Of a stretch of DNA of 64,000 nucleotides, positions 35,053-56,508 are shown in pieces. This DNA comes from an uncultured bacterium (GTDB taxonomy: Bacteria > Bacillota_I > Bacilli_A > RF39 > UBA660), in NCBI GenBank assembly GCA_947646655.1, contig CANSHI010000005.1, positions 1,599-65,598 on the forward strand, read 5' to 3'. The notes under the pieces were generated by a model. It ran no database searches. It was not told the DNA's origin and saw only the letters and a list, made by a program, of their open reading frames with translations. How positions within the stretch are numbered: the stretch's first letter is position 1; each line of letters starts with the position of its first letter. The translations under genes and the position numbers were made by a program.

Positions 35053-35053
35053 T

Positions 35054-36693: not shown

Positions 36694-36711
36694 TTTTCAC
36701 TATTCCTTTCA

Positions 36712-36927: not shown

Positions 36928-37106
36928 TAAACTTCCTCCTCTCTTGGCTGACTGATGTCTATTTTAATTAAATTTTTCCAAAAGTCAAGCACTATTTTAC
37001 GATTAATTATCAATTTTTGTTTATTTATATCTTTTTTGAATAACGAATCGTTGACAAATCTCATAATTTATGGTAATATATTCTTGTAATTGAAAGAGGA
37101 GATACT

Positions 37107-37463
37107 ATGGATAAAAGTAAGATTAAAATATTTAGTACTAATCTATCATACTATATGAAATTAAACGGGAAAAAAAGGCAAGATGTTGCTAAAGATTTAA
37201 ACTTTCCGTATTCTTCATTAAGAGATTGGGAAAAAGGAATCTGTTATGCACAAATAGACAAAATAAAAAAACTTGCTGATTACTTCAATATTTCAATAAA
37301 CGATTTAATAGAAGATCGTAACAGGGCTACACTAATAAAAAATATCAAAGAATCTGAAGAATCTAAACTAATAGAAGAAATTATAGAAGAACTCCCAAGT
37401 TTATCAAAAGAAAAACTTAAACATATTAAAACAACAATAGCTTTATTAAAAGAAAGCAAATAA
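37107..37463 (+). CDS. cI/Stl-like XRE-family HTH repressor
   Basis: HTH FSTNLSYYMKLNGKKRQDVAKDLNFPYSSLRDWEKG; GAGGAG RBS; divergent from the Cro-like gene and followed by the integrase. Confidence 0.6.
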   Translation: MDKSKIKIFSTNLSYYMKLNGKKRQDVAKDLNFPYSSLRDWEKGICYAQIDKIKKLADYFNISINDLIEDRNRATLIKNIKESEESKLIEEIIEELPSLSKEKLKHIKTTIALLKESK

Positions 37464-37604
37464 AAAAGAGCTAGTACTGGTAATACTAACTCGAACGCTA
37501 TATAGCGTACACAAGAAAAAATAATCCCAGCTAAAGACATTTCTTTTTGTGTACCTCTATTATAGCATTTAACAAAAAATATTGCAATTATGGAGGTTAT
37601 AAAA

Positions 37605-38966: not shown

Positions 38967-41126
38967 TTATTTTTTTTCAATTGTTTTTTCTTTTTTTTCC
39001 GACTTTGGAAGTGCTTCTTTTCTCGATAAATTTAGTCTTCCTCTGTTGTCAAATCCTGTAGCTTTTACTATAATCGTGTCTCCTACTTTTACTATATCAC
39101 TCGGTTTTTCAACTCGCTTATTATCTAATTCACTGACGTGTACTAAGCCTTCACACAAAGGCCATAATTCTACAAAACAACCAAATGTTTCCACCTTAGT
39201 AACTTTTCCTGTGTAAACTTGTCCTATTTCAACTTCTTTTACTACATTGGAAATCATCTCAATAGTTTTGTCAATAATTTCTTGATTAGAATGATATACT
39301 ACTACATGTCCATCATCATCAATATCAACTTTAACAGCATCTTTGTCATTGACAGTTTTAACATTAGAGGATTCTAAAATAATTTTTGTAATCATTTCTC
39401 CACCACGACCAATAACATCTTTAATTCTTTCAGGTTTAATATCCATCATAGCGATTTTTGGTGCATAAGGACTTAACTCTTTTCTTGGTTCGGGAATTAT
39501 ACTTGTCATTAAGTCAAGTATTTGTAATCTCGCTTTATGTGCTTGTGCTAAGGCTTCTTTTAAAATACTTTGGGTAATTCCTTTGATTTTTATATCCATT
39601 TGAAGAGCTGTAATTCCATTTTTAGAACCTGCTACTTTAAAATCCATGTCTCCCATGTGATCTTCTAAACCTTGAATATCGGTTAATATAGCATGTTTTT
39701 TCCCTTTTGTTATTAAACCCATTGCAATACCTGCTACAGGAGCTTTAATAGGAACTCCAGCTGCCATTAAGCTTAAACATCCAGCACATATAGAAGCTTG
39801 ACTAGAAGAACCGTTACTTTCTAAGATTTCACTTACGACACGTATTGTATAAGGAAATTCTTCCTCACTAGGTATGACTTGTAAAAGTGCACGCTCGCCA
39901 AGAGCTCCATGTCCAATTTCACGTCGGCCAGGTGCTCCGTATCTTCCTGTTTCACCTACACTAAAGTTAGGGAAATTATAATGAAGCATAAACCTTTTCA
40001 TATCTTCGATACCTAATCCATCGAGTATTTGATGTTCACCAATTGCTCCAAGTGTCGTAGTACTTAAAGCTTGTGTTTGTCCTCTTGTGAACATTGCACT
40101 TCCATGTGTACGAGGTAGAGTATCTATTTCTGCACTCAATGGTCTTATTTCATCAAGTTTTCTTCCGTCTGGGCGAATACCTTCTAAGACAATTAAATCA
40201 CGTACTAACTCGGCTTCTAACTCGTCAACTAGTATTCTAACATTTTTAAGTATGTCCGCTAAGTTTTCATTTTCAGCATATATTTCACCAAAATGGCCTA
40301 TTGCTGAAGTTTTAACGTTTTCAATCATCTCAAATTTTTCTTCTTTTGTACCTGGTGTACGAATAGCTTTATCCATGGCTTCTTTTGAGTATTCTTTTAC
40401 GATAGTAGTAAGCTCAGGGTCGATACAAGCTAAGTCGACTGTAATCTTTTCTTTTCCAACTTCTTTTATTATTTTTTCTTCAAATTCACAAAGTTCCTTT
40501 ATAGCAGCCTGACCAAATTCTATAGCTTTAAGCATTACTGCTTCAGATACTTCTTTAGCTCCTGCTTCAATCATACATATATCGGTTTTAGTTCCCGCGA
40601 GAGTGAGAAGTAATTCAGATTTCTCTGTTTCTTCAACTGTCGGATTGATAATATATTCTTTACCAATTTTACCTACTCTGACTCCCGCGATAGGCCCATC
40701 GAATGGAATATCGCTTATACCTAAGGACAAGGAAGCTCCCAGCATAGCGGCCATTTCTGGTGAATTGTCAGGGTCCACTGATAAAACCATATTTACGACT
40801 TGAACTTCATTTCTAAAACCATCTGCAAACATAGGTCTAATAGGTCTGTCGATCAATCTGGCATTTAGTGTTGCTTCATCAGTTGGCTTTCCTTCACGTT
40901 TTATAAAGCCTCCTGGAATTTTACCTACTGAATAAAGTTTTTCTTGGTAAAGAACTGTAAGTGGGAAAAAATCTGCTGTGCTGACATTGTTACTCATTAC
41001 TGAAGCACTTAATACGACTGTATCTCCATATCTAATTAAAGCAGAGCCATTTGCTTGTTTAGCTTTGTCACCTGTTTCAACTGTGATTGTTCTTCCCCTA
41101 AAATCTAATTTAAATTCTTTTTTCAT
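38967..41126 (-). CDS. pnp: Polyribonucleotide nucleotidyltransferase (PNPase)
   Basis: 719 aa with two RNase PH domains, KH and S1 domains; conserved position downstream of rpsO. Confidence 0.95.
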
Positions 41127-41197: not shown

Positions 41198-41467
41198 CTA
41201 TTTTCTTATATTTAACTTCTTTATTAGTTCACGATATGCTACAACATCGTTTTCCTTCAAGTAGTCAAGTAAACTACGTCTCTTACCAACTTTCATAAGA
41301 AGACCTCTTTTTGAATGATAATCGTGAATGTGTACTTTTAAGTGTTCAGTTAAGTCATTAATTTCGTCTGTTAGAATAGCGATTTGAACTTCTGTTCTAC
41401 CAGTATCTTTATCATTTTTACCGAACTCTTTTACACGAGCAAGTCTTTGTTCTTTAGTGACTGCCAT
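41198..41467 (-). CDS. rpsO: 30S ribosomal protein S15
   Basis: [15 protein letters not shown]… 89 aa from the internal Met, with AGGAGG 7 nt upstream; the track ORF begins at an upstream in-frame Met. Confidence 0.9.
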
Positions 41468-41836
41468 ATTCGTTCCTCCTTTATTTATACTCAATTTAAA
41501 CTTTGTAAGTAAGATGGAGTTCATACAAACAATGTAAAAATCTATATGTAGTATACAAGAAATTTATTGATAAATCAAGTGGGTTGAGTGAAATTTTTTA
41601 TCAAGATGTAAAGACCGTTGTTTTTTATAAAGTGATGCTTTTGTCAAAATGCTATTTTTGACGTCAATTGCCCTATCTAAGCCAAAAAATTGACATTCAT
41701 TAGTGGATGTGTTTTAATAAAAAATTAAGAGCACATCTATTCGTTGTTTCTCCTTTCTTACCTCAATCAACATGATTTTCATAAAATGCTTTACTCAGGG
41801 GGCTAAATATAAAGTAGGAAGGAGTTGATCGGTTTT

Positions 41837-42407: not shown

Positions 42408-43178
42408 TTATTTAATAGTTCTGTATTTAACAGATGGCATTTCGACTTCTTCGTTATTCAAAACTTTCTGTGGATTAGTTACTAATAAACGTTCAAATTC
42501 GCTTTTACCTAACATTCTCTTTAGCTTTTTCATCGATTTATCAAAAGTATTATCGTCTTTTATGTGGTGAAGATCTGTAGAAATGATACTTACAAGACCT
42601 TCTTTTAAAAGCTTTTTAACAAGGCTTTTTGCATGTCTACCATAATAACCTTCAATACTTTTAATATTACATTGTAGTCGACAATCGAAATCTAAAAACT
42701 CGTATATTTTGCTAAAGTTTTCTTGAATATATGAATAACGTTCGGGATGAGCGATTATCGGTATGATTCCAGCTTCATTTAGTTCATAGATGACATCTTG
42801 AATATAGCGTAATTTCTGATTAAGTGGAAATTCTACTAATAGATATCTGCTGTTGTTAAGCGTAGTAATTTCACCCGATTTCAAAAGATTAATCAATACT
42901 TTTCCATTATTTATAAATACTTCGTTTCCTAAGTATAATTTTACTTCGTCATCATTTAGTTCTTTTTTTAATTTTTCTAATATTCCTTGTCTCGTCTTTA
43001 CTACACTATTGTAATTGGTATTTACGATGTAATGAGACGTTAAACAGATGTGCTTGAATCCACGTTCACTTAAATATTTTATATTTTTAACAGCTTCTTC
43101 TAAACTTTTGGCTCCATCGTCTACTAAAGGTAAACTGTGATTATGTAAATCTATTAAATTATTCATAATAGTGTCCAT
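42408..43178 (-). CDS. PHP-family Mn-dependent protein-tyrosine phosphatase (CpsB/YwqE type)
   Basis: N-terminal DLHNHSLPLVDDGAKSLEE (PHP His motif); 256 aa; adjacent to a BY-kinase. Confidence 0.8.
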   Translation of the reverse strand: MDTIMNNLIDLHNHSLPLVDDGAKSLEEAVKNIKYLSERGFKHICLTSHYIVNTNYNSVVKTRQGILEKLKKELNDDEVKLYLGNEVFINNGKVLINLLKSGEITTLNNSRYLLVEFPLNQKLRYIQDVIYELNEAGIIPIIAHPERYSYIQENFSKIYEFLDFDCRLQCNIKSIEGYYGRHAKSLVKKLLKEGLVSIISTDLHHIKDDNTFDKSMKKLKRMLGKSEFERLLVTNPQKVLNNEEVEMPSVKYRTIK

Positions 43179-44499
43179 AATACTTGCTCTTATTAGTATC
43201 AGTTCTATTTAAAACGATACCCATAATATTAGCGTTTACGTTTTCAAGATTTTTCTTAGTATCTTCTAATAATTTTTTAGAAGTCTGTTTATAACCTGTA
43301 ACAACGATGACACCATCGACTAAAGTACTCATAACTAAGGAATCTGCTAGACCATTGATCGGTGCTCCATCAAATATAACGATGTCGAAGTTTTTCGATA
43401 AGGACTCCACTAATTTTTTGTTTTTTTCTGAGTTAAGTAATTCACTCGGATTTGGAGGAGTTACACCTTTAAACATTAAGTATAAATTGTCTATATTAGA
43501 TTTAAATATATAGTTTCTGTATACTTGTCCAACGTCTTCAAGAAGCAAGTTAGAAAGTCCTTTTTTATTAGGCGAACCAAAAATGTGGTGCTGACGGCCT
43601 TTACGTATGTCACAGTCTACTAAAAGAACACGGCTTCCACTATTTGCGAGTGATACTGCTAAGTTGGAAGTGACGAAACTCTTTCCTTCACCTGGTACGC
43701 TACTTGTTACTAAAATGGTTTTCATCTGTTTATCGATAGATGAGAATTGAAGATTTGTACGAAGAGTACGGATTGCCTCACTAATGCCAGATTTAGCATC
43801 ATTCATGATAATAAGCTCCTTATCACCCATTTTTTCTTTGTTTTTAGGGACTGCACCTAAAATAGGTAATTTGAACTCTTTCTCTATTTCTTCTTCACTT
43901 TTGACCGTATCATCGAAATAATACATAAGAGCAATAAGCAAGCTACTTATGGCAAAACCAGCACCTGTTCCAAATACAAACTGTTTCAATACATGAACAT
44001 TATATGGTGAGTCACCTGTTGTAGCTTCATCGATAATACTGACATTTTCAATATTATAAATAGTTGTAATTTCTGTTTCAAAAACTTTAGCTATTTCATT
44101 GGCTATTTTTTTAGCTGTACTACTCTTCTCATTATAGACGAAGATATTAATAATTTCTGTATCTTCTTTAGTGCTAACTTTTACTTGATCTTTTAAATCT
44201 TCATAAGCGATATCCAAGTCTAGGTTAGTTATAACTTTGTTAAGTATTCTTCTACTTTGAATGATCTCTCTATAAGTAGATACTAAGTTTTTATTGATAG
44301 TAATATCCGTTTGTGTAATAGTTGTATTTTCTTGAGAGTTATTTACCAATACTAAGCTAGTTTTAGCTTCATATACTGCTACTTGTATGTTATAAGTATA
44401 AAGTATACTTGCTATAAGTCCTAAAATTGTCAGTATAATAACAATTACAACTCGATTCCAATAGTATTTTAAAAATTCTAAAATATTAAATTCTTCCAT
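43159..44499 (-). CDS. Fused capsular polysaccharide co-polymerase (Wzz/CpsC-like) and bacterial tyrosine kinase (CpsD-like)
   Basis: N-terminal TM plus periplasmic Wzz-like domain and a second TM; C-terminal Walker A VTSSVPGEGKSF, Walker B VLLVDCD, and a Tyr-rich tail KSKYYGHYYE. Likely start is MEEFNIL with an AAGGGG RBS. Confidence 0.75.
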   Translation of the reverse strand: MEEFNILEFLKYYWNRVVIVIILTILGLIASILYTYNIQVAVYEAKTSLVLVNNSQENTTITQTDITINKNLVSTYREIIQSRRILNKVITNLDLDIAYEDLKDQVKVSTKEDTEIINIFVYNEKSSTAKKIANEIAKVFETEITTIYNIENVSIIDEATTGDSPYNVHVLKQFVFGTGAGFAISSLLIALMYYFDDTVKSEEEIEKEFKLPILGAVPKNKEKMGDKELIIMNDAKSGISEAIRTLRTNLQFSSIDKQMKTILVTSSVPGEGKSFVTSNLAVSLANSGSRVLLVDCDIRKGRQHHIFGSPNKKGLSNLLLEDVGQVYRNYIFKSNIDNLYLMFKGVTPPNPSELLNSEKNKKLVESLSKNFDIVIFDGAPINGLADSLVMSTLVDGVIVVTGYKQTSKKLLEDTKKNLENVNANIMGIVLNRTDTNKSKYYGHYYE

Positions 44500-44580
44500 G
44501 TAAAATTTCCCCTTTTTTATCACGATTACTTTACCATATTTTGTTAGAAAAATCAAGTGTTTCGAACTAAAAAAGCCCTT

Positions 44581-45042
44581 TTAATAAGTGCTTCTTCTTT
44601 CAATGTTTCTTTTCTCATCGTCATCGGTAGTTAAATATTTTATGAACACTCCTTGTACAAGACTTTCCCCTTTTGAAAAACAGTGTTCTTCTGTACTTTC
44701 GTTTTGAATACTTAACCACATGTGACCTTCATTGTCTTTATTATTATAGTAGTCTGCATCTATTACACCAAGTTGATTTGTTAAACGGATGTTGTACTTA
44801 AATCCAGTGCCACTTCGCACTACTAACAATAATACTTCATCAGAGTTAAATAGAGCTTTGATACCAGTAGGTATTTTCTTTATTTCTCCTGGTTTAATTG
44901 TTATGTCTTCTATAAGACTGAAATCGTATCCTGCTGTTTTATCAGAATCTCTTTTGGGCAATTCAAAAGAATTATACAATTCTCGATTGTCACTTATATC
45001 TTTTTTAAATGGTTCAAAAGTTATTTTTTCAAATTTACGCAT
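44581..45042 (-). CDS. dUTPase-family protein (motifs I-IV present, C-terminal motif V not evident)
   Basis: TAGYDFS (motif I), VVRSGTG (II), GVIDADYY (III), GESLVQGVF (IV). The C-terminus is acidic and lacks RGxGGFGSTG. Confidence 0.5.
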   Translation of the reverse strand: MRKFEKITFEPFKKDISDNRELYNSFELPKRDSDKTAGYDFSLIEDITIKPGEIKKIPTGIKALFNSDEVLLLVVRSGTGFKYNIRLTNQLGVIDADYYNNKDNEGHMWLSIQNESTEEHCFSKGESLVQGVFIKYLTTDDDEKRNIERRSTY

Positions 45043-45538
45043 ATTTTTTAACTTCTTTCTTTTTGGTTTTAATATTATTTTTAACTTTAATAATTAAGTT
45101 TGTCAAGCACATTCCAGAGAAGCACCCGATCGTGTCTATTACGACATCATAAAATCTCGCTGTTCTACCAGGTGTGAATATTTGATGAAATTCATCACCA
45201 CATGCGAATATAAAACAGAAGATGATACTTATCATGAGAGTATGCTTTATCTTATAACATCTTAAGAAGGCATAAACTAAAATACCTAGTATTAAATAAA
45301 TTGTAAAGTGTGCTAATTTTCTTACAATAAATCTACTTCTTACGACAATTTTTACTTTTTCTTTTGGTGTATAGTCTTCTTTAAACACACTGGCATACTT
45401 ATCGATTACACTTTTTGTAAAAGAGTCACTGACTTTTATACTAGAAGAGCCATCTTGATTGGAAAAAAAGAAAATAACTGAGGCAAGTATTAAAAATAAA
45501 GCGATAATTGTAATCTTTTTTATTTTTTCTTTTTTCAT
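45035..45538 (-). CDS. VanZ-family membrane protein
   Basis: Four TM segments plus FACGDEFHQIFTPGRTARFYDVVIDTIG, the VanZ-like conserved block. Confidence 0.6.
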   Translation of the reverse strand: MKKEKIKKITIIALFLILASVIFFFSNQDGSSSIKVSDSFTKSVIDKYASVFKEDYTPKEKVKIVVRSRFIVRKLAHFTIYLILGILVYAFLRCYKIKHTLMISIIFCFIFACGDEFHQIFTPGRTARFYDVVIDTIGCFSGMCLTNLIIKVKNNIKTKKKEVKKYA

Positions 45539-47055
45539 ACTTTTTTCCTCCTCAAGAATTGCTTTAACAAATTTAAATAATATTTAAAGTTTTCATTATT
45601 GCGATATATAATTATTAAAGCTAGATTTGGAAGTAAAAGCGATAATAAGATGTTTAGAAGTAATAAGATAACTTGGTTTTCTATATTTATAAAATATGAA
45701 ATAGAGAAAGTTATACCAGCGATTAGAATAAATACTAAAATATATTCCAATGTCTCTTTAATATAATCTTTATAGTTTCTGTCAAAAAGTTTTTTGTATA
45801 CAAATTTCGGATAACTGTAGCACCATAGAGCTAATCCACTTATAATAGTACCCATGAAAACGCCTGCTAAATCAAAATAGTGAAGTAAAATGATAGATGA
45901 GACAATGTTTAATACAGATTCAATGATCGGTACAAATCTATCTTCGTGATAAATTCCGGCTGCTTCTTTAAATACCGAGTAAGATGAACGCATGGACTTT
46001 TGAAAATAGTTTAATATTAAAATTATTAAAACGAAAGTCGGCAATATAAATTCTTTTCCTACCCATACCGATATAAAAGAATTAATTATTACTAAAATTG
46101 AAATTCCCGAAAAAGTTGCAATCCAAAAGTTTAAAAAACGCACTCTTTTGAAAACGTCAAAAGTCTTTTTTTTATTATTTTCTGTAAGAAGATTGCCTAC
46201 ACTAGGCGTTAAAACATTTATGACTTGACCGAATAATTTAGATACGGCATCTATGATTAAGTTGTAGTTCGAATATAGTCCGACTGTTACGATACCTAAG
46301 TATTTAGAAATAATAATGTTATCCGTTCCGAGAACTAAAAACCCTCCGATTTTATGAAAGAATAAAGCTCTTACTTTTTGAAAAATATCTTTTTTCGTAA
46401 CTTCATCTAATTCTTCTTTGTTATTGTTTAGATATGGATAAAGTTTTGTTGCGATTATGGAAAGTACGACGTTTTCTAATAGACGTAATACTATTTTTAT
46501 ACCTAAATACAAGTAGTAATTTTTAGTTAAAATTAAAATCGCGATTTGTAATAAATTTAGTATGACTAAATAGCCAATGTGAACTATATTTACTATAAAG
46601 TTTTTTTGATTAGCATTTATTATAGAGCGTTTATATGATAAAAGATAGGAAGCAAAGACGTCAAGGATAAATAAAATATATATAAATTCTAAATTGACAT
46701 CAACTGTGACATCTGTTGCAAAGAAGTTTAAAAAAGGTGTAATAGATAGTCCTATTAGCAAAATAATTATCGATATAATGTTGTAACATTTTTTATAAAA
46801 GTTCATGAGGGCTTTTATTTTTTGATGATCGTTTTCAGCAACAGGCTTATATAAATTGTATATTATTGCAGAGCCAATACCTAATTCGACTATCGCTAAC
46901 ATAGAGACAATATTATTAAATAAGCCATTTATACCAAGGTATTCTTTTCCGAGAATTTTAATGAAAATAGCTTGAGACAATAGCCCTAGTAATATAACAA
47001 TTAGATTACTAGAAAAAGATGTAATGATATTTTTTATTGAATTTTTGACTCTCAT
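45535..47055 (-). CDS. Polysaccharide flippase (Wzx, MOP superfamily)
   Basis: 506 aa with about 12-14 TM segments; position inside a glycan locus. Confidence 0.65.
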   Translation of the reverse strand: MRVKNSIKNIITSFSSNLIVILLGLLSQAIFIKILGKEYLGINGLFNNIVSMLAIVELGIGSAIIYNLYKPVAENDHQKIKALMNFYKKCYNIISIIILLIGLSITPFLNFFATDVTVDVNLEFIYILFILDVFASYLLSYKRSIINANQKNFIVNIVHIGYLVILNLLQIAILILTKNYYLYLGIKIVLRLLENVVLSIIATKLYPYLNNNKEELDEVTKKDIFQKVRALFFHKIGGFLVLGTDNIIISKYLGIVTVGLYSNYNLIIDAVSKLFGQVINVLTPSVGNLLTENNKKKTFDVFKRVRFLNFWIATFSGISILVIINSFISVWVGKEFILPTFVLIILILNYFQKSMRSSYSVFKEAAGIYHEDRFVPIIESVLNIVSSIILLHYFDLAGVFMGTIISGLALWCYSYPKFVYKKLFDRNYKDYIKETLEYILVFILIAGITFSISYFINIENQVILLLLNILLSLLLPNLALIIIYRNNENFKYYLNLLKQFLRRKKV

Positions 47056-47128
47056 AAAATCTCTCCTTTTTAGTCTTTTTATTAATTTATATTATACACT
47101 TTATAGTGATGAAAATAAAGAATATACT

Positions 47129-47932
47129 TTAATTTTTACTCTGTTTAAAGTTGTTAATAACTAGTAGAGATAACCCTAGAAGCAGTATAATACACCCAGT
47201 TACTAGAACTAATGATAAATATTTGTCGATTATAGATACGATAAGATTAGAAAATACTTTGCTTATAATAGAAATATTTTGGTAAATTTGTCTTAAAATT
47301 AGATTTAAAGTAATAGCGATAATTCCGCATGCAGTAAAGATTGTACCTAGTTCTTTTAAAGGTTTTTTATTCAATATAATCGTTAATACTATTAAAATTG
47401 TCAATAAAACTGTTAACACTATAATAACTGGTTTTGAAATATTTTTAACTTTGGAAATTATTAAACTCAGTTTAGATACCGTTGAAGGAAAAACGCTTAT
47501 CTCTTCTTTATAAATATTTACTAACTCTTTCTCAAGTCTTTCGATGTCTTTTTTCTCTTCATAACTAGGAGTTCTGTCGGCTGCATTTAGAGCTTCTGTT
47601 ATTTTTGTATCGATCTTTTTTTGGAAGTCTCTTTCATCTATATTCAGCTCTTTATTTTGAAATAATGAGTCAACTAACTTATCGATTTCAGATTTTACAA
47701 TTTTTTCGTCAACAGTGTTTTTCAATTCCTCCGTATTGAGACCAGACTCTAATGTATTATTTTCAATTTGTTCTTGTATGTTAGTGTAAATTTCGTGGTA
47801 GTAGTTTATATCTTCTAAATGATTTTTTATGTTGTTTTCATCTAGTAAAACTGACTTTCCTATGAGTAGAAAAATAAATATAATCATAGTCACAAGAGTA
47901 ATAAAGTTTAATATATGTTTAAAAATTTTCAC
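47129..47932 (-). CDS. Hypothetical membrane protein with a central coiled-coil
   Basis: N-terminal TM, Glu/Lys-rich middle region, three C-terminal TMs. Confidence 0.35.
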   Translation of the reverse strand: MKIFKHILNFITLVTMIIFIFLLIGKSVLLDENNIKNHLEDINYYHEIYTNIQEQIENNTLESGLNTEELKNTVDEKIVKSEIDKLVDSLFQNKELNIDERDFQKKIDTKITEALNAADRTPSYEEKKDIERLEKELVNIYKEEISVFPSTVSKLSLIISKVKNISKPVIIVLTVLLTILIVLTIILNKKPLKELGTIFTACGIIAITLNLILRQIYQNISIISKVFSNLIVSIIDKYLSLVLVTGCIILLLGLSLLVINNFKQSKN

Positions 47933-48576
47933 TATTCTTCACCCCTATATTCACTATTCTCTAACTTTGCATATACGACAAATCTCTTTTCAGTGTGCCC
48001 AAAAGTAGAAGTTTGAAAGCAAGTATATAACATCAATATTTCTTCACCTTTGTTTGTCGGAACTTTATCGGTTTCTTTGTAGTTAATAATTTGGTGGTCA
48101 TATACTTTGTATGTAAATTTACCGTATGAAGTTTGAACGATTATTTCAGAATTTATGTCGATGTTTTTTAGTTTACTTAGAACTCCGACATTGTTATGAC
48201 CCATGTAAAGGATTGAACCGCCTTCGCCCGGGAAATAACTACTACTAGAATGCCCTATTCCGTGTTTTAAAATCGACATCGAGTCCCCGAAAAAAACGGG
48301 CAAGTCGATATTTAAAGATGGTATTTGAAGTGTGGCATATTTAGTACCATATTCCGGGTAGACAACTAGCTTATGACTTTCTTCATCGATCAAAACATCT
48401 TTGGAAGATACTTCTTTGTTGTTAATCGAAATTAAGTCGATTGTAGATTTTAATTCCTTATAACTTTTATTAAAACATATAAATAAGACACCAAAAAAGA
48501 GGAATGAATAAATGAAAGCAACTATAATAGATTTCATAGTTGCTTTTATTATTGTCTTAACGTTTTTATTAAGCAT
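47932..48576 (-). CDS. Sortase-family transpeptidase
   Basis: N-terminal TM; a His in YMGHNNVG, the TLxTC-type Cys in LMLYTCFQ, and an Arg 12 residues later (TEKRF). Confidence 0.65.
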   Translation of the reverse strand: MLNKNVKTIIKATMKSIIVAFIYSFLFFGVLFICFNKSYKELKSTIDLISINNKEVSSKDVLIDEESHKLVVYPEYGTKYATLQIPSLNIDLPVFFGDSMSILKHGIGHSSSSYFPGEGGSILYMGHNNVGVLSKLKNIDINSEIIVQTSYGKFTYKVYDHQIINYKETDKVPTNKGEEILMLYTCFQTSTFGHTEKRFVVYAKLENSEYRGEE

Positions 48577-49096
48577 TGAATCTCTTTCTTAGAACAAGTG
48601 TTCCTGTTCCTAGAATAGCTACTACAGACATAGTAATTGCTAAAACGTTAGCAGTACCAGTTTGTTTAAGATAAGGGTTCAATGAAATGGCGTCTATTTT
48701 TTTGTCACCTTTATAGGCAACGATTTCTTTATTAGCTTTGTCATAAGAAAGAGTAACACCAACAATGTTAGCAGCTTCTTTTGCTAAGCCAAATATTTCA
48801 TTTTTAACGTTTTTACTTAATTTTGTAACGTCTTTAACGCCTTCTCTATTTAGAACAGCTATTATTTCGTCACATTTAGCAATTATATCACTAGCTTGTT
48901 CATCAGTAACCTCGTTAGAATTTAAAAATCTTTCTATTTTAGCAATATCACCATTAGATAAACTAACATTTTCCCCCGCAATTTTATGAGATTGATTAGC
49001 ATAAGTTAATAATGTATCGTTTCCTTTAGCACTTACAGAAGTAACAAAAGTAAAAGTTGCTAACATTACTAACATTCCTTGCATAACTTTTTTCAT
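48569..49096 (-). CDS. Small secreted protein with a C-terminal sortase-type sorting signal (noncanonical LKQTG motif, hydrophobic segment, RKRFNA tail)
   Basis: Signal peptide ending …TSVSA; C-terminus NPYLKQTGTANVLAITMSVVAILGTGTLVLRKRFNA; overlaps the sortase start by 8 nt. Confidence 0.45.
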   Translation of the reverse strand: MKKVMQGMLVMLATFTFVTSVSAKGNDTLLTYANQSHKIAGENVSLSNGDIAKIERFLNSNEVTDEQASDIIAKCDEIIAVLNREGVKDVTKLSKNVKNEIFGLAKEAANIVGVTLSYDKANKEIVAYKGDKKIDAISLNPYLKQTGTANVLAITMSVVAILGTGTLVLRKRFNA

Positions 49097-49207
49097 AATA
49101 AATTTCCTCCTTTTGGGGTCATATTATAGCACACTTTTTATAAAAATCAAGTACTAAACGGCAAAAATACGTTATTTTTGGTGGAAATGTCTGGAATTAT
49201 CGTCAAG

Positions 49208-50212
49208 TTAGTCTTTGATTTTATATAGTATTTTTAAAGTTATCAAATATAAATTCATTAAAATGGTATTATTATTTTTAATCATATTAAGTAAAATTCG
49301 ATTTTTTTTAGGCAGTGTATTTAAATGAGAGTTAGATAAAAGATATTTAAAATAATCATCGTTTTGCAATTTTGTGATTTCTTTAATACACGTATTTTTA
49401 TTAATTTTACATATGTTAATTAAATATTGACTAATGATAGATAAGTGACTAGCATTCATATCTAAGATGATGTTTTTATCGACGATATTTTTGATTTCAG
49501 CGTTAAGAACTCGGTTAGTATCTAATATTCCGTATATGATTTTTGTAAAGTTGTTTTTATTATGTGTTACACTTACGGGATTATTGTAGTAGTTATACAT
49601 TTTAATATCTATGAATTTACCTTTTTTGGCAGTTTTGAATAGTTGAAAATAGAACTCGACATCTTCCATCATAAATAGAGTTTCGTTGAATTTCAATTTA
49701 TCAATTATGTCTTTTCTTATTAATAGCAAAAAAATTAAATTAGGAATTGCTTCTTTGGAAGTTAAGAAGTGTCTGAAGATGATTTCACTATTTTCCTTTA
49801 TATTTAGTGTTTTATTAGCTAGATCGAATAAATTGTTATTAAAAGTAGTTGGTCCAATCGGATTAAAATTGTATCTTATGAAATCTACGCTTTCTTCGAT
49901 GTTGTCAATAAGAGTTTTTATGCAGTCTGTTTCTATAGTATCATCAGAATCGATGAATGTTACATAATCTCCAGTTGAGGCCTCGATTCCCTTATTTCTA
50001 GAGTTACTTACGCCAGAGTTTGGCTTGTCGATAACTTTTATGCGATCATCTTTATCAGCATAAGAAGTACATATTTGTAATGTATTATCTTTAGAGCCGT
50101 CGTTTATAACTATTACTTCGATATTTTGATAAGTTTGATTTAAAACAGAATCTAAACATCTCGCTAAAGTTTTTTCGGCATTGTAGGCTGGAATAATAAT
50201 ACTAACTTTCAT
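49208..50212 (-). CDS. Family 2 glycosyltransferase
   Basis: GT-A motifs VIVINDGSKDNT and FIDSDD near the N-terminus. Confidence 0.8.
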   Translation of the reverse strand: MKVSIIIPAYNAEKTLARCLDSVLNQTYQNIEVIVINDGSKDNTLQICTSYADKDDRIKVIDKPNSGVSNSRNKGIEASTGDYVTFIDSDDTIETDCIKTLIDNIEESVDFIRYNFNPIGPTTFNNNLFDLANKTLNIKENSEIIFRHFLTSKEAIPNLIFLLLIRKDIIDKLKFNETLFMMEDVEFYFQLFKTAKKGKFIDIKMYNYYNNPVSVTHNKNNFTKIIYGILDTNRVLNAEIKNIVDKNIILDMNASHLSIISQYLINICKINKNTCIKEITKLQNDDYFKYLLSNSHLNTLPKKNRILLNMIKNNNTILMNLYLITLKILYKIKD

Positions 50213-51305
50213 TTTTGATCTCCTCCTTGTTGTTAAAAATTATGTTCGCGATGATTAAGAGCGAAATCGACCTAGCTATGTTAATTGGAAATAACTCATT
50301 AAACAAGTACAGTGGGAATATAATCAGAATGGCCCTATCGATTACATTTTTTTCTTTTTTCTCTGTACAATAATATAAGAAAGCGATCACTACAAGTATT
50401 ATGAATCCATAAGTTATGAAAGCCCTAGTATAAAAGTTGTCGACGATTAAATTATTGTTTATTAAAACGTTGCCTATTTTATTGCCAAAAATATGAAAAC
50501 CAAATAGTTGTATAGCTTTGTTTGTGTAGTAAAGTCTTCGGCTTAACAATCTATCGAGTTTGACTATTAGAGGATTTTTCATAAAATTACTTATGAACAA
50601 AGTGAGGCAGTTAACGCATATCATAACCAAAAACAACTTTTTCTCGAGAAAATTGGTTATTTTAGTAAACTTTTTGTGTTTCAATAAATACAAGAGCAAT
50701 AAAAATATTATATATATTATGATAGCTGTTCTCGAATATATAAAGATCGAATATAGCGTGAATACAATAGTACTTATTATAATCGCTCTTTTTTTGTTTT
50801 TGGTAATATATATCCAGTCGATGATAAGCCATATAATTATTGAGGCAGTCGTATTAGGATGTGTAAAATATAAGGCGTGTCTAACAGATATAGTACTACT
50901 TCTAAATAGATGAGGTACTATTTTAGAATAATCTAATATGTAATCATAGAAGTAGATAATCGTATGTAGTGACAAGAAAATTAACTTCATTATTAGGTCA
51001 GCTTTTATTACCTTTTTAACGTCGACATCTACTATGGCAATCATTACGATAAAATTGGTTATAAACATAAAATCATTCGTTTTAAACGAAGTATATATAG
51101 AAATTAATCCTATTAAAGCCATGTAGAGAATGTGTTTTTTCTCGTATTTAGATTTTACTATTTTTAAAATCATTAAGACTAATGCTAAAGCATAAAGTGC
51201 ATAATGTATTTTAGAGTCTATGGTAATTATATTAGATACGCCTGATAGAGTTATAAAGTTTAAAATTATAATGCCTATAATATAAAATAACTCATTTTTT
51301 TTCAT
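50202..51305 (-). CDS. Polysaccharide polymerase / O-antigen-ligase-like membrane protein (Wzy-like)
   Basis: About 10-12 TM segments with a larger loop; locus context. Confidence 0.5.
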   Translation of the reverse strand: MKKNELFYIIGIIILNFITLSGVSNIITIDSKIHYALYALALVLMILKIVKSKYEKKHILYMALIGLISIYTSFKTNDFMFITNFIVMIAIVDVDVKKVIKADLIMKLIFLSLHTIIYFYDYILDYSKIVPHLFRSSTISVRHALYFTHPNTTASIIIWLIIDWIYITKNKKRAIIISTIVFTLYSIFIYSRTAIIIYIIFLLLLYLLKHKKFTKITNFLEKKLFLVMICVNCLTLFISNFMKNPLIVKLDRLLSRRLYYTNKAIQLFGFHIFGNKIGNVLINNNLIVDNFYTRAFITYGFIILVVIAFLYYCTEKKEKNVIDRAILIIFPLYLFNELFPINIARSISLLIIANIIFNNKEEIKNES

Positions 51306-51319
51306 TTACATCACCCTTT

Positions 51320-52480
51320 TTATTTAATCAATTCGTGGAAATTTTGACAGTAATTTTCTATAGAAAACTTTTCTATTATAGCTTTGTAATCTTTTATTTC
51401 TCTTTCTTCTTTTAAAACTAGTTCCATTTTGGCAACTAAATCTTCTACTAAATTTTCTCTATTAACATAAATCGCATCGTCTTTTAAAACTTCTGGTATA
51501 CCACCACTTTTGGTAGCAATAACTGTGAGATTAGATGGAAGTCCTTCTAGAAGTACTAGTCCAAAGGCTTCGTTACATATAGAGGGAACGACTTGAATGT
51601 CGGCGATTTGATAGTATTTGTACATACTTTGATAGTCTACATAACCAGTGAAAATGATGTTTTGGTTATCTTTACTCAGCGATAGTAAACTTTCTCGGTA
51701 GGAATCGGTGGCACGCATGCTTTTAGTTCCACCAGCGATGAGGAGTTTTGTTTTTGGAAATTGCTTATTAACTACTAGAAATGCTTCAACGAGTTCTTTA
51801 ACTCCTTTTTCGGGCATAAGACGACCTGTATATAGAAAAACTGTTTCGTCCATAATGTTGAGACTTTTTTTGAAAGAAATCTTTTCTTGTTGAGACAATT
51901 TTTTTTGGAAATTTGCAAAATCTACACCATTATAAAGAACTTTGACAGGAATTTCTTTATGATTGACTTCTTCGATACGACTTTTAATAAACTCACTTAC
52001 TGACCAAATTTCATCACAAGATGCGATTATTTCATGGACATTGATAGTATCTTTATTGACATAATCATTGTGAAGATGAAGAATAATTTTATTTTTGGCA
52101 CCAGTGTGTTTTTTAAAATAAGGAATATGGTATTGGCAGTTTTCGAAAATTATACAATCATAAGAATTTATATTTTTGTGCTTATTTAAGTCTTTTACTA
52201 CACTTCTCATATAAGCTCCTGGAAGGTTCTTTTTAGTCAGTTTATTTAATAAGCGATAAAAATAATCTTTAGTTTTAAATAGTAATTTTGTTTTATCGAT
52301 TATTTTAAATTGTGTATGTTTAAAAGTTCTCGTTTCTGTTTCTCTCGACTTAATAGTATATAAAGTAATATCATCTTTAACTATCTCATTATAATCGAGA
52401 TAATACTCTATAAGTTTTTCTATTGCACCTTTTTTGCTCGTGACAGGAATGTAACCTGGACTAACAATTAAAATTCGCAT
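51320..52480 (-). CDS. Family 4 (GT-B) glycosyltransferase
   Basis: C-terminal EAFGLVLLEGL (the E-x7-E region of GT4). Confidence 0.75.
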   Translation of the reverse strand: MRILIVSPGYIPVTSKKGAIEKLIEYYLDYNEIVKDDITLYTIKSRETETRTFKHTQFKIIDKTKLLFKTKDYFYRLLNKLTKKNLPGAYMRSVVKDLNKHKNINSYDCIIFENCQYHIPYFKKHTGAKNKIILHLHNDYVNKDTINVHEIIASCDEIWSVSEFIKSRIEEVNHKEIPVKVLYNGVDFANFQKKLSQQEKISFKKSLNIMDETVFLYTGRLMPEKGVKELVEAFLVVNKQFPKTKLLIAGGTKSMRATDSYRESLLSLSKDNQNIIFTGYVDYQSMYKYYQIADIQVVPSICNEAFGLVLLEGLPSNLTVIATKSGGIPEVLKDDAIYVNRENLVEDLVAKMELVLKEEREIKDYKAIIEKFSIENYCQNFHELIK

Positions 52481-52492
52481 ATTCGTTCCTCC

Positions 52493-53662
52493 TTATAGTA
52501 TTTTTTTAATTTCTTCGTATATTCTCTCACTGTTCGATTTATCTATATATTTGAAAAAACTCTTGTTTCGACTTTGATACTCACTAAAGTCTTCTTTGCC
52601 TTCTAAATATTCTAATATTTTTTTCTTAAGACTTTCAAAATCTTTATAAACTGGTCCGAATCCATCGTTTTCGTAAGAGTAGTAACCATCGGCATATTGT
52701 TCTTGACGATATTTTTCGACGTCAAATTGAAAATATAGTACGTTTTTTTGCATGTAAGCAAAATCGAAAGTAACACTTGAATAATCAGTAATTAAAAGTT
52801 TTGATCTTTTTAATAAATCTTGAACATCGTAATTTTTAAAGTCGGCCATGATTACTTTTTCACTTGTACTTTTAAAATCTTTGATAAATTTTTGAAGTAC
52901 AATGTGGGGATAAAAAATTATTTTCATGTTTTTGAGCTCTAAAAGTGATAAAATGTCTTTATCGTTTAATATTTTCATGTATTGTTCATAAAATTTCGTA
53001 CCGACTAAAGTATCGTTATATTTGAGCCATTTACGCCATGTCGGCATGATTAAAATTATGTTTTCATCTAAATTTTCGAGTTGGTCAAATCGAGAAAACC
53101 CTGTCAGCCTGGCAACTTTGTCACTGTAGCCATATTTTTCTATCATATATTTACATTCTGGAATCGCACCACATATGAATAAATCTAGTTTTGTTCTAGT
53201 GGGAAGCATATATTCCATGAAGTCTTTTGTTATACCATGTTGTAAAAAAACAGTTTTTCCACATAGTTTTAAAAGTCCCATTTTGTTAAGTCGATAATAA
53301 AGTTGTTCATTTGGGGAAAAGCCCATTATTTGAGCACTTATCAATACTTTAGAATATAAAAAGTAGTAGTAATGCTCTTTTGAACGATAGTCGACTATAT
53401 CACAGGAAGCAATCTTTTTTCGGTCAGCACTTTTTTTAGAAATTACATATTTTATTTCTATTTCTGGATGATTGTCTTTCATATATTTATAAAACCAATA
53501 TCCGTTGTCTCTAGCATCGATACCTCTTTCGGAGATGAGCCATGTATCAGTTTTCTTTTTGCCTTTAATTTTAAAGAATATTTTATAAAAAGCTAATGTT
53601 AATATGTCGATTAAACTTTTAAATATAAATTTTAATTTATTCATGATCGATAACCCTTTCAT
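52493..53662 (-). CDS. CDP-glycerol glycerophosphotransferase (TagB/TagF family)
   Basis: FLQHGITKDF and IMPTWRKW blocks characteristic of TagF-like enzymes. Confidence 0.6.
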   Translation of the reverse strand: MKGLSIMNKLKFIFKSLIDILTLAFYKIFFKIKGKKKTDTWLISERGIDARDNGYWFYKYMKDNHPEIEIKYVISKKSADRKKIASCDIVDYRSKEHYYYFLYSKVLISAQIMGFSPNEQLYYRLNKMGLLKLCGKTVFLQHGITKDFMEYMLPTRTKLDLFICGAIPECKYMIEKYGYSDKVARLTGFSRFDQLENLDENIILIMPTWRKWLKYNDTLVGTKFYEQYMKILNDKDILSLLELKNMKIIFYPHIVLQKFIKDFKSTSEKVIMADFKNYDVQDLLKRSKLLITDYSSVTFDFAYMQKNVLYFQFDVEKYRQEQYADGYYSYENDGFGPVYKDFESLKKKILEYLEGKEDFSEYQSRNKSFFKYIDKSNSERIYEEIKKIL

Positions 53663-54755
53663 AATATTCTTCTAATTTTTTGACTTCAAGAGCAATGTCA
53701 TACCCATGATATGATACTTCCTTACTCCAATCCCTTCTAGGCTTATTGTCTAAAAGCTTTAATGCTTCGTTTTTCCAAGCAGTGCTTCCAGCTTCTAAGC
53801 TTAAAAATTTTAAATTTTCGGTTACTTTAGTAGCTTTTGGAACCATAGTGGAAGTCAAACATTTTGCTCCAGCACATTCTGCTTCGATGAGTGCCATTCC
53901 TAGTCCTTCGTAGAGACTTGGCATAATAAATAAATCTATGGCCTGATATATTTCGTTGATATCGTCTCTTTGTCCTAGAAGTTGAGTACAACCTTTTAAA
54001 TTTAATCGAGAAATTTTTTGTTCTACTTCGTTCATTAAAGGTCCATGGCCTCCGAGTAATAGTACTGAATTTGGAAGATTATCATGGATTTCTTTGAATA
54101 TATCTAGTAGGAAGGTATGATTTTTGGTTTCGACAAACCTTCCTACATGTCCTACTACTAATACGCCTTCTTCGATATTCAATTCATTGCGCACTTTTTT
54201 TCTTATTTTTTCATTGTATTTAAATTTACTTAAATCGATAGCATTATTTAAAAGATAGACAAGTCCTTTATCATATGTTTTGTCGCCAAAAAGCCAACGA
54301 CCTGCATGTTCTGAACAACACATATAGTTGGTTGCAAAGACTTTACTGAATGGTTTTAATAGTGTTTTCATAATGTGCTTTTTTAGTTCTTTTTTATTTG
54401 TCGTAGCGTGATTGTGCGCGATGCGAACAGGCACGCCTGCTCTTTTGGCAGCCAAAAGAGGAAAAACAGAAAGTGTATTGATGTGTGAATGAACTATTTT
54501 GTAATTGCCTTTTTTTAAAACTTGTTTTAATACTTTTTGGTATTTAAAGATTTTTTGATATGGAGGTATTAAAATTACTTTTCCTCCAAGTTTTTTGATT
54601 TCTTCGTAGGGAATATCAGTGGAATCTTCATCACATAAAAAGTCAAACTGTATTTTGGATCTATCGATTTGACGATAGTAATTCATAATGACAGCTTCTA
54701 CTCCACCACCTACCCATTTTCCTATTATTTGGGCTATTCTTATAGGCTTATCCAT
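53637..54755 (-). CDS. Family 4 (GT-B) glycosyltransferase
   Basis: EGLGMALIEAECAGAKCL motif. Confidence 0.75.
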   Translation of the reverse strand: MDKPIRIAQIIGKWVGGGVEAVIMNYYRQIDRSKIQFDFLCDEDSTDIPYEEIKKLGGKVILIPPYQKIFKYQKVLKQVLKKGNYKIVHSHINTLSVFPLLAAKRAGVPVRIAHNHATTNKKELKKHIMKTLLKPFSKVFATNYMCCSEHAGRWLFGDKTYDKGLVYLLNNAIDLSKFKYNEKIRKKVRNELNIEEGVLVVGHVGRFVETKNHTFLLDIFKEIHDNLPNSVLLLGGHGPLMNEVEQKISRLNLKGCTQLLGQRDDINEIYQAIDLFIMPSLYEGLGMALIEAECAGAKCLTSTMVPKATKVTENLKFLSLEAGSTAWKNEALKLLDNKPRRDWSKEVSYHGYDIALEVKKLEEYYERVIDHE

Positions 54756-54839
54756 GGCTTACCTCCAAAAAAAATACTATATACTTTTGTATATAGTAAT
54801 TATATCATATTATAAAGTTTTATGGTAACCAATATACAC

Positions 54840-55586
54840 TTATTTGGCACTTTTGTGGTCAAAAAGAGCAGTAAAAGTTTTGAAAAATATTTTTATGTCC
54901 ATTTTAGCATTATAATTGTTAGAATAATATTTTTCCATTTTTAATCTATCTTCAAATGTACCACGTGAACGAAGATTTACTTGCCAATAACCTGTAAGTC
55001 CTGGTTTGGTTTTAACGATATCATTGTAATAAAACATCATATCTTCTTTTTCTCTAGGTAAGTATGGTCTATTTCCAATGAAACTCATATCACCTTTTAA
55101 AATGTTTATTATTTGCGGAAGCTCATCGATAGAGGTACGTCTTAAAATTTTACCAATTTTAGTTATTCTAGGATCATTTTCAAGCTTTTTCATTTCAGTA
55201 TATTCTTCTTTAATCTTTGGATTACTTTCTAAAAGTTCCATAAGTACAGCATCAGCGTTAGGTATCATACTTCTAAATTTATATAATTTGAAGAGTTTGC
55301 CATCTTTTCCTATTCTGTTTTGTGTATAAAATATGGAATCGTAATCTTTAGATAAAAGAGATACTATTTTAACTATTAGTATAACTGGTAAAAGACATAT
55401 AAGAGCGAGCAAAGATAAAACAATGTCAAAAAGTCTTTTAAAACCTAAATAAGTTACTTCTAAAACTTTGCTTAATTTAACACTAGTACGGACTTTTCTA
55501 CTTTCAATTATAGTTTCTTCAAACATAAACAAAACCCCCTTTTGTTTAATGGCTGATATGATAACACAAATCGACAAAAAATGCAA
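54840..55586 (-). CDS. Polyprenyl-phosphate sugar phosphotransferase (bacterial sugar transferase; initiating enzyme)
   Basis: One TM, then the conserved C-terminal DELPQIINILKGDMSFIGNRP block. The true start may be the internal MFEETII. Confidence 0.8.
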   Translation of the reverse strand: MHFLSICVIISAIKQKGVLFMFEETIIESRKVRTSVKLSKVLEVTYLGFKRLFDIVLSLLALICLLPVILIVKIVSLLSKDYDSIFYTQNRIGKDGKLFKLYKFRSMIPNADAVLMELLESNPKIKEEYTEMKKLENDPRITKIGKILRRTSIDELPQIINILKGDMSFIGNRPYLPREKEDMMFYYNDIVKTKPGLTGYWQVNLRSRGTFEDRLKMEKYYSNNYNAKMDIKIFFKTFTALFDHKSAK

Positions 55587-55656: not shown

Positions 55657-56508
55657 TTATATCAGTTTTACGTACATTTTATATATGTTATTTTCTTTTT
55701 GATAAATAGCGTACACTTCATTTTCTTTGACGAATTTAATAAATTTATCTTCAAAGTTATAACTTAATTGTATGCCATTTTCGACCTTTTTTAGCAAATT
55801 TTCGTCTAACTCAACAGATCTTATGTTTTGAAGAAATTGTATAGGTTTTAAAATAGTAAAGTTATTTTTTTCTATTTCTTCTAGTGTATAACAGTTTTCT
55901 ATGTTAAAGTTTCCTTGTTTAGTTCTTATTAGAGACGTCATAGTTGCATAAGTACTCAGTGAAGCACCAATATCGCGTATAAGACTTCTAATATAAGTCC
56001 CTTTGGAAACAAGAGTTTTAATAGTTATTTTTGTTTCATCAAAAGAAAGTATTTCGATGTTTTTAATGTTAACTAATCTACTTGGTAAATTTACTGGCAG
56101 TCCTGAGCGGGCATATTCATAGAGCTTTTTTCCATTTACTTTAACAGCCGAATATTTAGGAACGATTTGATTATATTCACCTTTAAAAGAGTATATTGCC
56201 TCTTTAATAGCATCTTTTGTAACCATATGACTACTTTCTTTGGTTTTTACTCCAGTTATATCTAAAGTATCTGTTTCAAATCCTAATATAAATTCGGCAA
56301 TGTACTCTTTATATTCACTTGTCAGCATTTCAGTGAGTTTGGTACATTTTCCAATAGTTAAAATGAGAACACCAGTCGCGAGTGGGTCTAGTGTTCCTGT
56401 ATGACCTATTTTTTTGGTTCCTAGTAGATGAGAAACTTTATTTACCACATCTCTACTAGTGAATTTTTTTGGTTTATTGATTAGCAATATTCCGTTTAAA
56501 TCAGTCAT
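55657..56508 (-). CDS. truB: tRNA pseudouridine(55) synthase
   Basis: GHTGTLDPLATGVL catalytic motif; conserved position after rbfA. Confidence 0.9.
   Translation of the reverse strand: MTDLNGILLINKPKKFTSRDVVNKVSHLLGTKKIGHTGTLDPLATGVLILTIGKCTKLTEMLTSEYKEYIAEFILGFETDTLDITGVKTKESSHMVTKDAIKEAIYSFKGEYNQIVPKYSAVKVNGKKLYEYARSGLPVNLPSRLVNIKNIEILSFDETKITIKTLVSKGTYIRSLIRDIGASLSTYATMTSLIRTKQGNFNIENCYTLEEIEKNNFTILKPIQFLQNIRSVELDENLLKKVENGIQLSYNFEDKFIKFVKENEVYAIYQKENNIYKMYVKLI

Follow-up and report, generated by a model that had tools for sequence, protein, structure and literature searches.

In this study, we analyzed a 64,000-nucleotide (nt) stretch of DNA (hereafter the window; contig CANSHI010000005.1 of assembly GCA_947646655.1) from an uncultured bacterium of the RF39 lineage of Bacillota_I, and characterized a three-gene cassette that is located within its capsular polysaccharide (cps) locus. 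The cassette encodes a 175-residue secreted protein with a sorting signal (SUB), a sortase that is predicted to act on it, and a membrane protein that we designated TM3 (Table 1). It is widespread and undescribed, and it combines a substrate of a predicted new fold, a sorting signal without proline, a membrane partner and an embedded RNA element, all in the setting of capsule loci. A literature search found no paper describing it. The cassette suggests that polysaccharide assembly is connected with the cell wall through a protein, in a way that has not been described before. A first-pass annotation of this DNA had proposed that the sortase and SUB form a pair that anchors a protein serving the polymer as primer or adaptor, or else decorates the wall with a polysaccharide-associated protein. 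This interpretation was partly supported; both the TM3 gene and a conserved hairpin within the sortase gene lay beyond its account.

When one genome of each GTDB species was scanned, 266 loci were obtained, and the cassette is present in at least 266 species of uncultured gut Firmicutes. The best 80 of the 266 were kept, and synteny was analyzed in 93 sortase-bearing loci that included these 80 species-level genomes. The SUB-family gene was found directly 5' of the sortase gene and on the same strand in 92 of the 93 loci, the exception being a contig end. Likewise, a TM3-family gene followed directly 3' in 90 of them, and the three exceptions were again contig ends. The earlier idea of a dedicated sortase-substrate pair therefore holds, whereas that of a two-gene unit does not: the unit is a cassette of SUB, sortase and TM3. 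The sortases of different species are only about 45% identical. All of the 80 retrieved loci came from metagenome-assembled genomes (MAGs) of uncultured gut bacteria with 22-31% GC, which were labelled as Clostridia, Clostridium sp., Bacilli, 'Mycoplasma' or Erysipelotrichaceae and originated from human, rabbit, ruminant and mouse samples. The window sortase was closest (56-58% identity) to loci labelled Bacilli, 'Mycoplasma' or Erysipelotrichaceae. Neither plasmid-borne nor cultured relatives were detected in PLSDB by DNA and protein searches. As a separate observation on the hosts, 16 species, including that of locus L067 (1735-4716), encode a protein of about 990 residues with a C-terminal dockerin about 5 kb 5' of the cassette, which hints that part of the host range consists of cellulosome-type Clostridia.

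To describe the surroundings, neighboring genes were labelled by hidden Markov models (HMMs) seeded from Pfam-annotated genes. Two sets of loci were used: 49 species-level loci flanked on either side by 5 kb or more, and 64 loci with 3 kb or more downstream. First, hallmark cps genes were present within 8 kb, co-oriented and contiguous with the cassette, in 47 of the 49 loci, and 40 of these 49 contained Wzz, tyrosine kinase and CpsB genes together. Second, the Wzz-kinase-CpsB block was located directly 3' of TM3 in three-fourths of the loci of the second set (48/64). In the other 16, the next gene mostly encoded VanZ or an initiating transferase and once an LCP protein, and in five it was unlabelled. 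Third, the glycosyltransferase content differed from locus to locus. Hence, the placement of the pair among polysaccharide genes recurs far outside the window, and the cassette behaves as a part of the conserved common region of Wzx/Wzy-type capsule or exopolysaccharide loci. With Wzz-kinase-CpsB adjoining it while the glycosyltransferases vary, it behaves like a common function that is independent of serotype, as streptococcal cpsABCD does. Apart from the Actinomyces oris case discussed below, our literature search found no paper that links a sortase with Wzz/CpsB loci.

The first-pass annotation had also remarked on the lack of an LCP ligase, and this was borne out in part. No LCP gene was detected in the window by an HMM that was narrow (built from three distinct LCPs, so that divergent members may escape it), and the same model found an LCP gene within 8 kb of the cassette in only 3 of the 80 species-level loci. 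However, in these three (L019, L025 and L090) it stands right beside the cassette. The cassette and LCP can therefore coexist, and because some relatives have an adjoining LCP gene and two species lack cps neighbors altogether, LCP absence is not a defining property. The position of the cassette invites comparison with the streptococcal cpsABCD block, in which CpsB, a CpsC/Wzz-type protein and the CpsD tyrosine kinase are likewise encoded next to a variable serotype-specific region. That block is headed by CpsA, an LCP ligase that attaches capsule to peptidoglycan. The place of CpsA is taken by SUB-sortase-TM3 in the 48 loci mentioned above, and in the window also it is the cassette, and no CpsA (LCP), that holds the head of the block.

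SUB carries all the parts of a tripartite sorting signal as first described: a TG motif, a hydrophobic run and a basic tail, together with an N-terminal signal peptide. The protein ends in NPY-LKQTG-TANVLAITMSVVAILGTGTLVL-RKRFNA, in which the hydrophobic stretch comprises 22 residues, and it is the only open reading frame (ORF) of the window with a credible sorting signal. The second motif position is not proline; it is lysine in the window and alanine, valine or lysine in the family. LKQTG is indeed present in place of LPXTG, but it is not a peculiarity of this protein: it is the form that a family-wide LxxTG signal takes in the clade to which the window belongs. Among 221 distinct SUB proteins, whose motif consensus is (K)-L-[A/V/K]-[Y/Q]-T-G-N-N, LAYTG was the commonest form (54 proteins), followed by LVQTG, LKQTG and LVYTG (12 each), and proline at the second position was rare (LPYTG, 5; LPFTG, 3). 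A few family substrates have LAATG; most do not. The sequence PYL(K/R)QTG was retained in all nine of the closest relatives of SUB (51-97% identity). Across 139 aligned members with a mean column identity of 25%, Thr146 and Gly147 were 100% and 94% conserved, respectively. The generic LPXTG anchor model of NCBI (TIGR01167) detected the C-terminus of 20 of the 139 members; one checked member, P0145, scored 17.8 bits against a cut-off of 15.9. We found no paper in which LKQTG, LAYTG, LVQTG, LVYTG or LPFTG is treated as a sorting signal. A search for sortase residues that co-vary with the motif type (Y-class versus Q-class) was discarded, as the two classes are two clades and the signal is confounded.

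The sortase has 214 residues and an N-terminal membrane anchor. The catalytic residues pointed out in the first-pass annotation were confirmed: His127 lies within YMGHNNVG, Cys186 within LMLYTCFQ and Arg198 is 12 residues past the cysteine, and this triad is invariant in a family alignment of 40 sequences (A2). The same alignment shows an invariant YFPGEGG motif that is peculiar to the family, which has more than 560 relatives. Membership of the sortase superfamily is clear (PF04203, 80.6 bits versus a cut-off of 26.6; TIGR01076, 68.8 versus 39.35). The class D models scored best, although below their cut-offs (NF033746, 94.3 versus 165; NF058671, 100.6 versus 140), and five relatives scored 93-131 bits on the class D models. 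The scores for class C (NF033745, 59.6 versus 160; 60-82 bits when relatives are included) and class E (NF033747, 54.9 versus 160) were lower still, and neither a DPW-type lid nor a C-terminal hydrophobic segment, both features of class C, was seen in the sequence. The class E signal is LAxTG, and LAATG is confined to a few family substrates. The best PDB matches were low-scoring and included 8t28 (class C, 47.5 bits), 4d70 (41.2 bits; presumably the sortase D structure of Clostridium perfringens) and 2ln7. One family member is labelled 'class D sortase' by NCBI. It is the only sortase in the window, and it is best described, from its profile scores, as a class-D-like member of an unclassified subfamily with its own YFPGEGG motif; cleavage and transpeptidation of SUB are its predicted activities. 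Known class D pairs, such as SrtC with BasH/BasI of Bacillus anthracis and SrtD of C. perfringens, resemble the cassette in having a small N-terminally membrane-anchored sortase with a His-Cys-Arg triad, encoded beside its few substrates. On the other hand, the cassette differs from them in its sub-threshold scores, in a substrate motif (LKQTG here and LxxTG with Ala, Val or Lys at the second position family-wide) that is neither LPxTA/LPxTATN nor LPQTGS, in the additional conserved membrane-protein gene and the YFPGEGG motif, and in being part of cps loci, not of sporulation or other settings.

SUB has a mature part of about 13.5 kDa, and Ala23 at its predicted signal peptide cleavage site is 97% conserved in the family alignment. 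A profile search of 1.84 billion representative proteins returned 567 family representatives at 50% identity (E ≤ 0.001). No Pfam or NCBIfam family matched the window protein or the 139 members scanned, apart from weak matches to the anchor region only. For this reason 'EF0750_LPXTG' was rejected as a family assignment: it matched the C-terminal anchor only, with 17-20 bits versus a cut-off of 47. An AlphaFold model based on the 139-sequence alignment (mean predicted local distance difference test score 83, core above 90) contained a beta-hairpin, four helices and a three-stranded sheet. In this model the alpha/beta domain ends at residue 138 and a helix spans residues 149-174; only about five residues would separate the folded domain from the motif, which begins at residue 143. 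Foldseek searches with two models found no fold relative in the PDB (best E 0.4, TM score ≤ 0.27), nor did a profile search, and the model suggests that SUB has a new fold.

Some loci showed variations on SUB. The domain was duplicated as tandem genes in L032 and L036, and proteins of 289-353 residues with two or three SUB domains and a single sorting signal were also found (L049:7115-8011; P0146, P0151 and P0196). In addition, a second secreted protein of 220-320 residues, without a Pfam family and with a canonical LPK[T/A]G sorting signal, was encoded near SUB in 20 of the 80 species (L033, L042, L044, L046, L047, L051, L053, L056, L057, L060, L061, L065, L066 (6620-7402), L069, L071, L073, L075, L079, L084 and L091). 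Its gene was directly 5' of SUB, or two genes further up in L071 and L084. In these 20 species, two predicted wall-anchored proteins with differing signals are encoded close together.

TM3, whose ORF touches the sortase stop codon, showed an N-terminal transmembrane segment, a conserved soluble segment of about 135 residues that is presumed to be extracytoplasmic, and about three C-terminal transmembrane segments in its hydropathy profile. The window protein matched no Pfam or NCBIfam family, and no consistent Pfam match was observed across 44 members. No relative was detected in the PDB, and hhalign showed TM3 to be unrelated to Wzz and to SUB; a word-indexed protein search gave two matches only.

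The 8-nt overlap reported earlier, which comprises both the stop codon of SUB and the start codon of the sortase gene, was present in the window and recurred in 53 of 81 species-level SUB genes, which implies, as read from the sequences, that the two genes are translationally coupled. The frequent '-NA' C-terminus of SUB proteins (105 of 225) is explained by the AAT-GCx-TAA junction, which contains the sortase ATG. Downstream of the overlap, within sortase codons 11-21 and 23-54 nt past the SUB stop codon, we found a hairpin with the arms AAAGCAACTATTA and TAATAGTTGCTTT (minimum free energy -14.8 kcal/mol; z = -5.6 versus shuffles). Its stem and loop occurred in all of 74 distinct loci (alignment A6), with 99.3% of cells paired. 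Of the 39 substitutions observed, 26 were single changes after which a G·U pair remains on the sense strand, and double changes were seen in three pairs. Across 79 genes, the four-fold degenerate third positions of the stem codons Ala12, Thr13, Val19 and Ala20 were 96-100% identical, compared with 39-88% for those of 19 other conserved four-fold codons of the sortase gene. Because synonymous stem sites are far more conserved than those elsewhere in the gene, selection acts on the nucleotides of the hairpin and not on the protein alone. The hairpin and its U-rich tail resemble a terminator, and the element is probably a leaky intrinsic terminator or a 3'-stabilizing element that raises SUB mRNA far above sortase mRNA and so sets the ratio of substrate to sortase; it may also have a role at the DNA level. 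No Rfam family matched at gathering score anywhere in the window, including the hairpin, and a search of the window for a further copy of a hairpin arm, which would be a sign of a recombination site, returned only the two arms themselves. In the hairpin, an RNA signal is cleanly superimposed on protein-coding sequence.

Functionally, the closest known parallel is the GspA/LcpA/SrtA system of A. oris, where, in the published model, glycan is added to a secreted protein that a sortase then anchors (PMC6381275; PMC7831098); a review regards it as the only case so far in which LCP glycosylates a protein that is anchored by a sortase (PMC7831098). In both systems a protein with a sorting signal is genetically linked with glycopolymer genes, and the three related loci that place LCP directly beside the cassette add to the likeness. 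However, A. oris employs its housekeeping sortase and LCP is the key transferase, whereas the cassette has a dedicated sortase and LCP is usually absent nearby (none linked to the substrate in the window, and three of the 80 species-level loci within 8 kb). SUB is also much smaller than GspA and had no match in family or structure libraries, a contrast that does not involve a direct comparison of the two proteins. Two further systems offer analogies only. In Gram-negative exopolysaccharide loci, PEP-CTERM proteins combine a short motif, a transmembrane helix and a basic tail and are processed by dedicated exosortases, which are unrelated polytopic membrane enzymes that usually have many substrates in diderm hosts; the cassette enzyme, by contrast, has the classical sortase fold and essentially one substrate. 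Wzi of Escherichia coli group 1 loci (wzi-wza-wzb-wzc) also heads a conserved block, is fixed at the surface and tethers the capsule, but it is an outer-membrane beta-barrel lectin that is not attached by a sortase, and the cassette has no homology to it.

Taken as a whole, the reading that the cassette anchors SUB to the wall and that SUB is the attachment point or adaptor of the polymer has, in our judgment, about an even chance of being correct. SUB would be exported via Sec, and its C-terminal helix and basic tail would keep it in the membrane. The membrane-anchored sortase would then use His127, Cys186 and Arg198 to cleave LKQTG between threonine and glycine with formation of a thioacyl intermediate, and, by analogy with all studied sortases, the 13.5-kDa alpha/beta domain would be transferred to an amine of a peptidoglycan precursor. 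Because only about five residues lie between the folded domain and the cleavage site, the domain would sit deep in the wall, at its inner face right above the membrane. There it could serve Wzz, the tyrosine kinase, CpsB, Wzx and Wzy, most likely as the point or adaptor through which the polymer is attached on the side of the wall, with SUB being either a glycoprotein acceptor or a tether. The leaky terminator-like hairpin and the overlapping start codon would make SUB abundant and the sortase scarce. A more specific form of this reading, which we regard as rather unlikely, is that the polymer is fixed to the wall via the protein: it would be assembled on SUB or become ligated to it, the sortase would join the conjugate to peptidoglycan or SUB to a glycan amine, and TM3 would be a coupling factor. 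This is a job usually done by LCP ligases, which are to our knowledge the only enzymes known to fix capsules or wall polysaccharides to Gram-positive walls.

Several observations weigh against such a role in polymer attachment. First, the three loci in which LCP is right beside the cassette do not fit a simple replacement of LCP. Second, in two species an intact cassette (L039:7470-9464 and L086:7397-9459) is surrounded by housekeeping genes, and polysaccharide genes are absent up to a distance of 8 kb; its neighbors are recA, scpA, fur and rubrerythrin genes in one and aldolase and integrase genes in the other. Third, neither a carbohydrate-binding fold nor a conserved Ser/Thr-rich glycosylation tract was recognizable in SUB. 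Fourth, the peptidoglycan nucleophile is assumed from other sortases, every host is an uncultured MAG, and gene linkage alone is no proof of contact between SUB and the polysaccharide.

Other explanations were considered. The best of them, which still seems unlikely to us, is that wall-anchored SUB and TM3 form an extracytoplasmic partner of the Wzz/tyrosine-kinase/CpsB system that positions the machinery or reports wall status, and thereby tunes chain length or output, without SUB ever being joined to the polymer. It would account for the tightest linkage being with Wzz-kinase-CpsB (48/64) and not with any glycosyltransferase, for the conserved and presumably extracytoplasmic segment of TM3, and for the absence of lectin-like or glycosylation-tract features in SUB. 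However, about a quarter of the loci have VanZ, Bac_transf or glycosyltransferase genes after the cassette instead, TM3 has no homology to Wzz, and covalent anchoring to the wall is an unusual requirement for a regulator. Distinctly less probable is a protein-glycan ligation, in which the acyl intermediate would be resolved on an amino group (e.g., of an amino sugar or ethanolamine phosphate) of the polysaccharide or of its undecaprenyl-linked precursor, and SUB would become a covalent cap or primer. The location of the cassette in the conserved cps core beside export and polymerization genes, the near lack of a linker between the modelled SUB domain and its motif, and the usual absence of LCP nearby are consistent with this idea, and sortase A accepts aminosugar nucleophiles in vitro. 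On the other hand, we know of no natural sortase with a glycan nucleophile, two species carry the cassette without cps neighbors, and, given how much the variable regions differ between loci, only the shared initiating sugar could supply an amine acceptor common to all of them.

We consider it improbable that the sortase is a polymerizing one that joins SUB to SUB, with Thr146 linked to one of the conserved lysines, for example Lys98 (80%), to build a short pilus-like fiber or sheath that is co-produced with the capsule. A dedicated sortase with a single adjacent and putatively highly expressed substrate is the layout of a pilus locus, the top PDB entry by sequence, 8t28, is a class C enzyme, SUB has conserved lysines, and tandem SUB genes (L032 and L036) as well as proteins with two or three SUB domains exist. 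However, the class C scores (60-82 bits) were lower than those for class D and far under the cut-off of 160, the DPW-type lid and C-terminal membrane anchor are missing, and SUB has no YPKN-type pilin motif and is modelled as an alpha/beta protein rather than with an Ig-like pilin fold. Finally, it seems no more credible that SUB is an ordinary surface protein (an adhesin or protective wall protein) that travels with its own sortase and has no role in the polysaccharide: the two species with the cassette away from cps genes and the lack of any SUB feature pointing to carbohydrate chemistry would suit it, but so persistent a linkage (47 of 49 loci with cps genes adjoining in the same orientation, despite about 45% sortase identity and differing glycosyltransferases) is not expected without a functional tie, and the very short linker of the model speaks against an adhesin exposed at the surface.

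Should the cassette indeed anchor or organize the polymer, it would represent a new route of attachment as well as a sortase specificity that is also new and possibly useful for protein ligation. It would then also serve to mark capsule loci in gut lineages of which little is known, and provide a context for two protein families that are now annotated as 'hypothetical'.

The locus in the window (Table 1) is a Wzx/Wzy-type polysaccharide locus with a CpsBCD-type block. Pfam scans identified the genes required for this type, namely CpsB, Wzz/CpsC-type, tyrosine kinase, Wzx, initiating transferase and glycosyltransferase genes, and the cassette stands between an upstream variable part and a downstream part. 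Promoter-like sites numbered 46 in the scanned region versus 35 expected, so that the match near SUB is weak evidence.

Table 1. Features of the cassette and of the surrounding polysaccharide locus in the window.
Feature	Position (nt)	Strand	Basis or remark
SUB (substrate gene)	48569-49096	-	175-residue secreted protein; ORF call
SUB Sec signal peptide, residues 1-23	49028-49096	-	MKKVMQGMLVMLATFTFVTSVSA followed by KG; cleavage after VSA; read from sequence
LKQTG motif, residues 143-147	48656-48670	-	Codons CTT AAA CAA ACT GGT; sequence
Hydrophobic helix and basic tail, residues 148-175	48572-48655	-	Sequence and model
SUB/sortase 8-nt overlap, ATGCTTAA	48569-48576	-	SUB stop codon overlaps sortase start codon
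RNA hairpin, 13-bp stem and 6-nt loop, then U-rich tail	48515-48546	-	Terminator-like match
Sortase gene	47932-48576	-	214 residues; Pfam PF04203, E = 1e-22
Sortase His127 codon	48196-48198	-	Catalytic
Sortase Cys186 codon	48019-48021	-	Catalytic
Sortase Arg198 codon	47983-47985	-	Catalytic
TM3 (third cassette gene)	47129-47932	-	267 residues; ORF call and hydropathy
Intergenic region 5' of SUB	49097-49207	-	111 nt; holds AGGAGG ribosome-binding site
Promoter-like site	49123-49150	-	TTGATT-16-TATAAT with upstream TG; weak evidence
Downstream part of locus	42408-47055	-	
CpsB phosphatase	42408-43178	-	Pfam scan
Fused Wzz and tyrosine kinase	43159-44556	-	Pfam scan
dUTPase-like gene	44581-45042	-	PF00692, E = 1e-9
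VanZ	45035-45538	-	Pfam scan
Wzx flippase	45535-47055	-	Pfam scan
Variable part of locus, upstream	49208-55586	-	
GT2	49208-50212	-	Pfam scan
Candidate Wzy	50202-51305	-	Polytopic; no Pfam match
GT1	51320-52480	-	Pfam scan
TagF-like CDP-glycerol glycerophosphotransferase	52493-53662	-	Pfam scan
GT1	53637-54755	-	Pfam scan
Bac_transf initiating transferase	54840-55586	-	Pfam scan

Several minor observations were made on the locus and its flanks. The presence of the TagF-like gene among the glycosyltransferase genes suggests that the polymer contains glycerol phosphate and is teichoic-acid-like. The dUTPase-family gene between VanZ and Wzz-kinase is an odd member of a cps locus; it occupies the same place in the close relative L007 (12527-12988). 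The whole cps locus (42408-55586) is inserted between truB (55657-56508) and rpsO (41198-41524)/pnp (38967-41126), and interrupts the nusA-infB-rbfA-truB…rpsO-pnp cluster, which is normally contiguous; in L007 the cps locus is found at the same site, just 5' of rpsO-pnp. The window has a GC content of 29%, and no rRNA or tRNA genes were detected in it. Mobile-element genes are present on both flanks (33020-38714 and 62184-63992): a tyrosine integrase gene (37590-38714) adjoins pnp together with genes for a helix-turn-helix regulator, a DUF1064 protein and a DUF5906 protein, and a TraG/VirD4-like type IV coupling protein is encoded at the window end.

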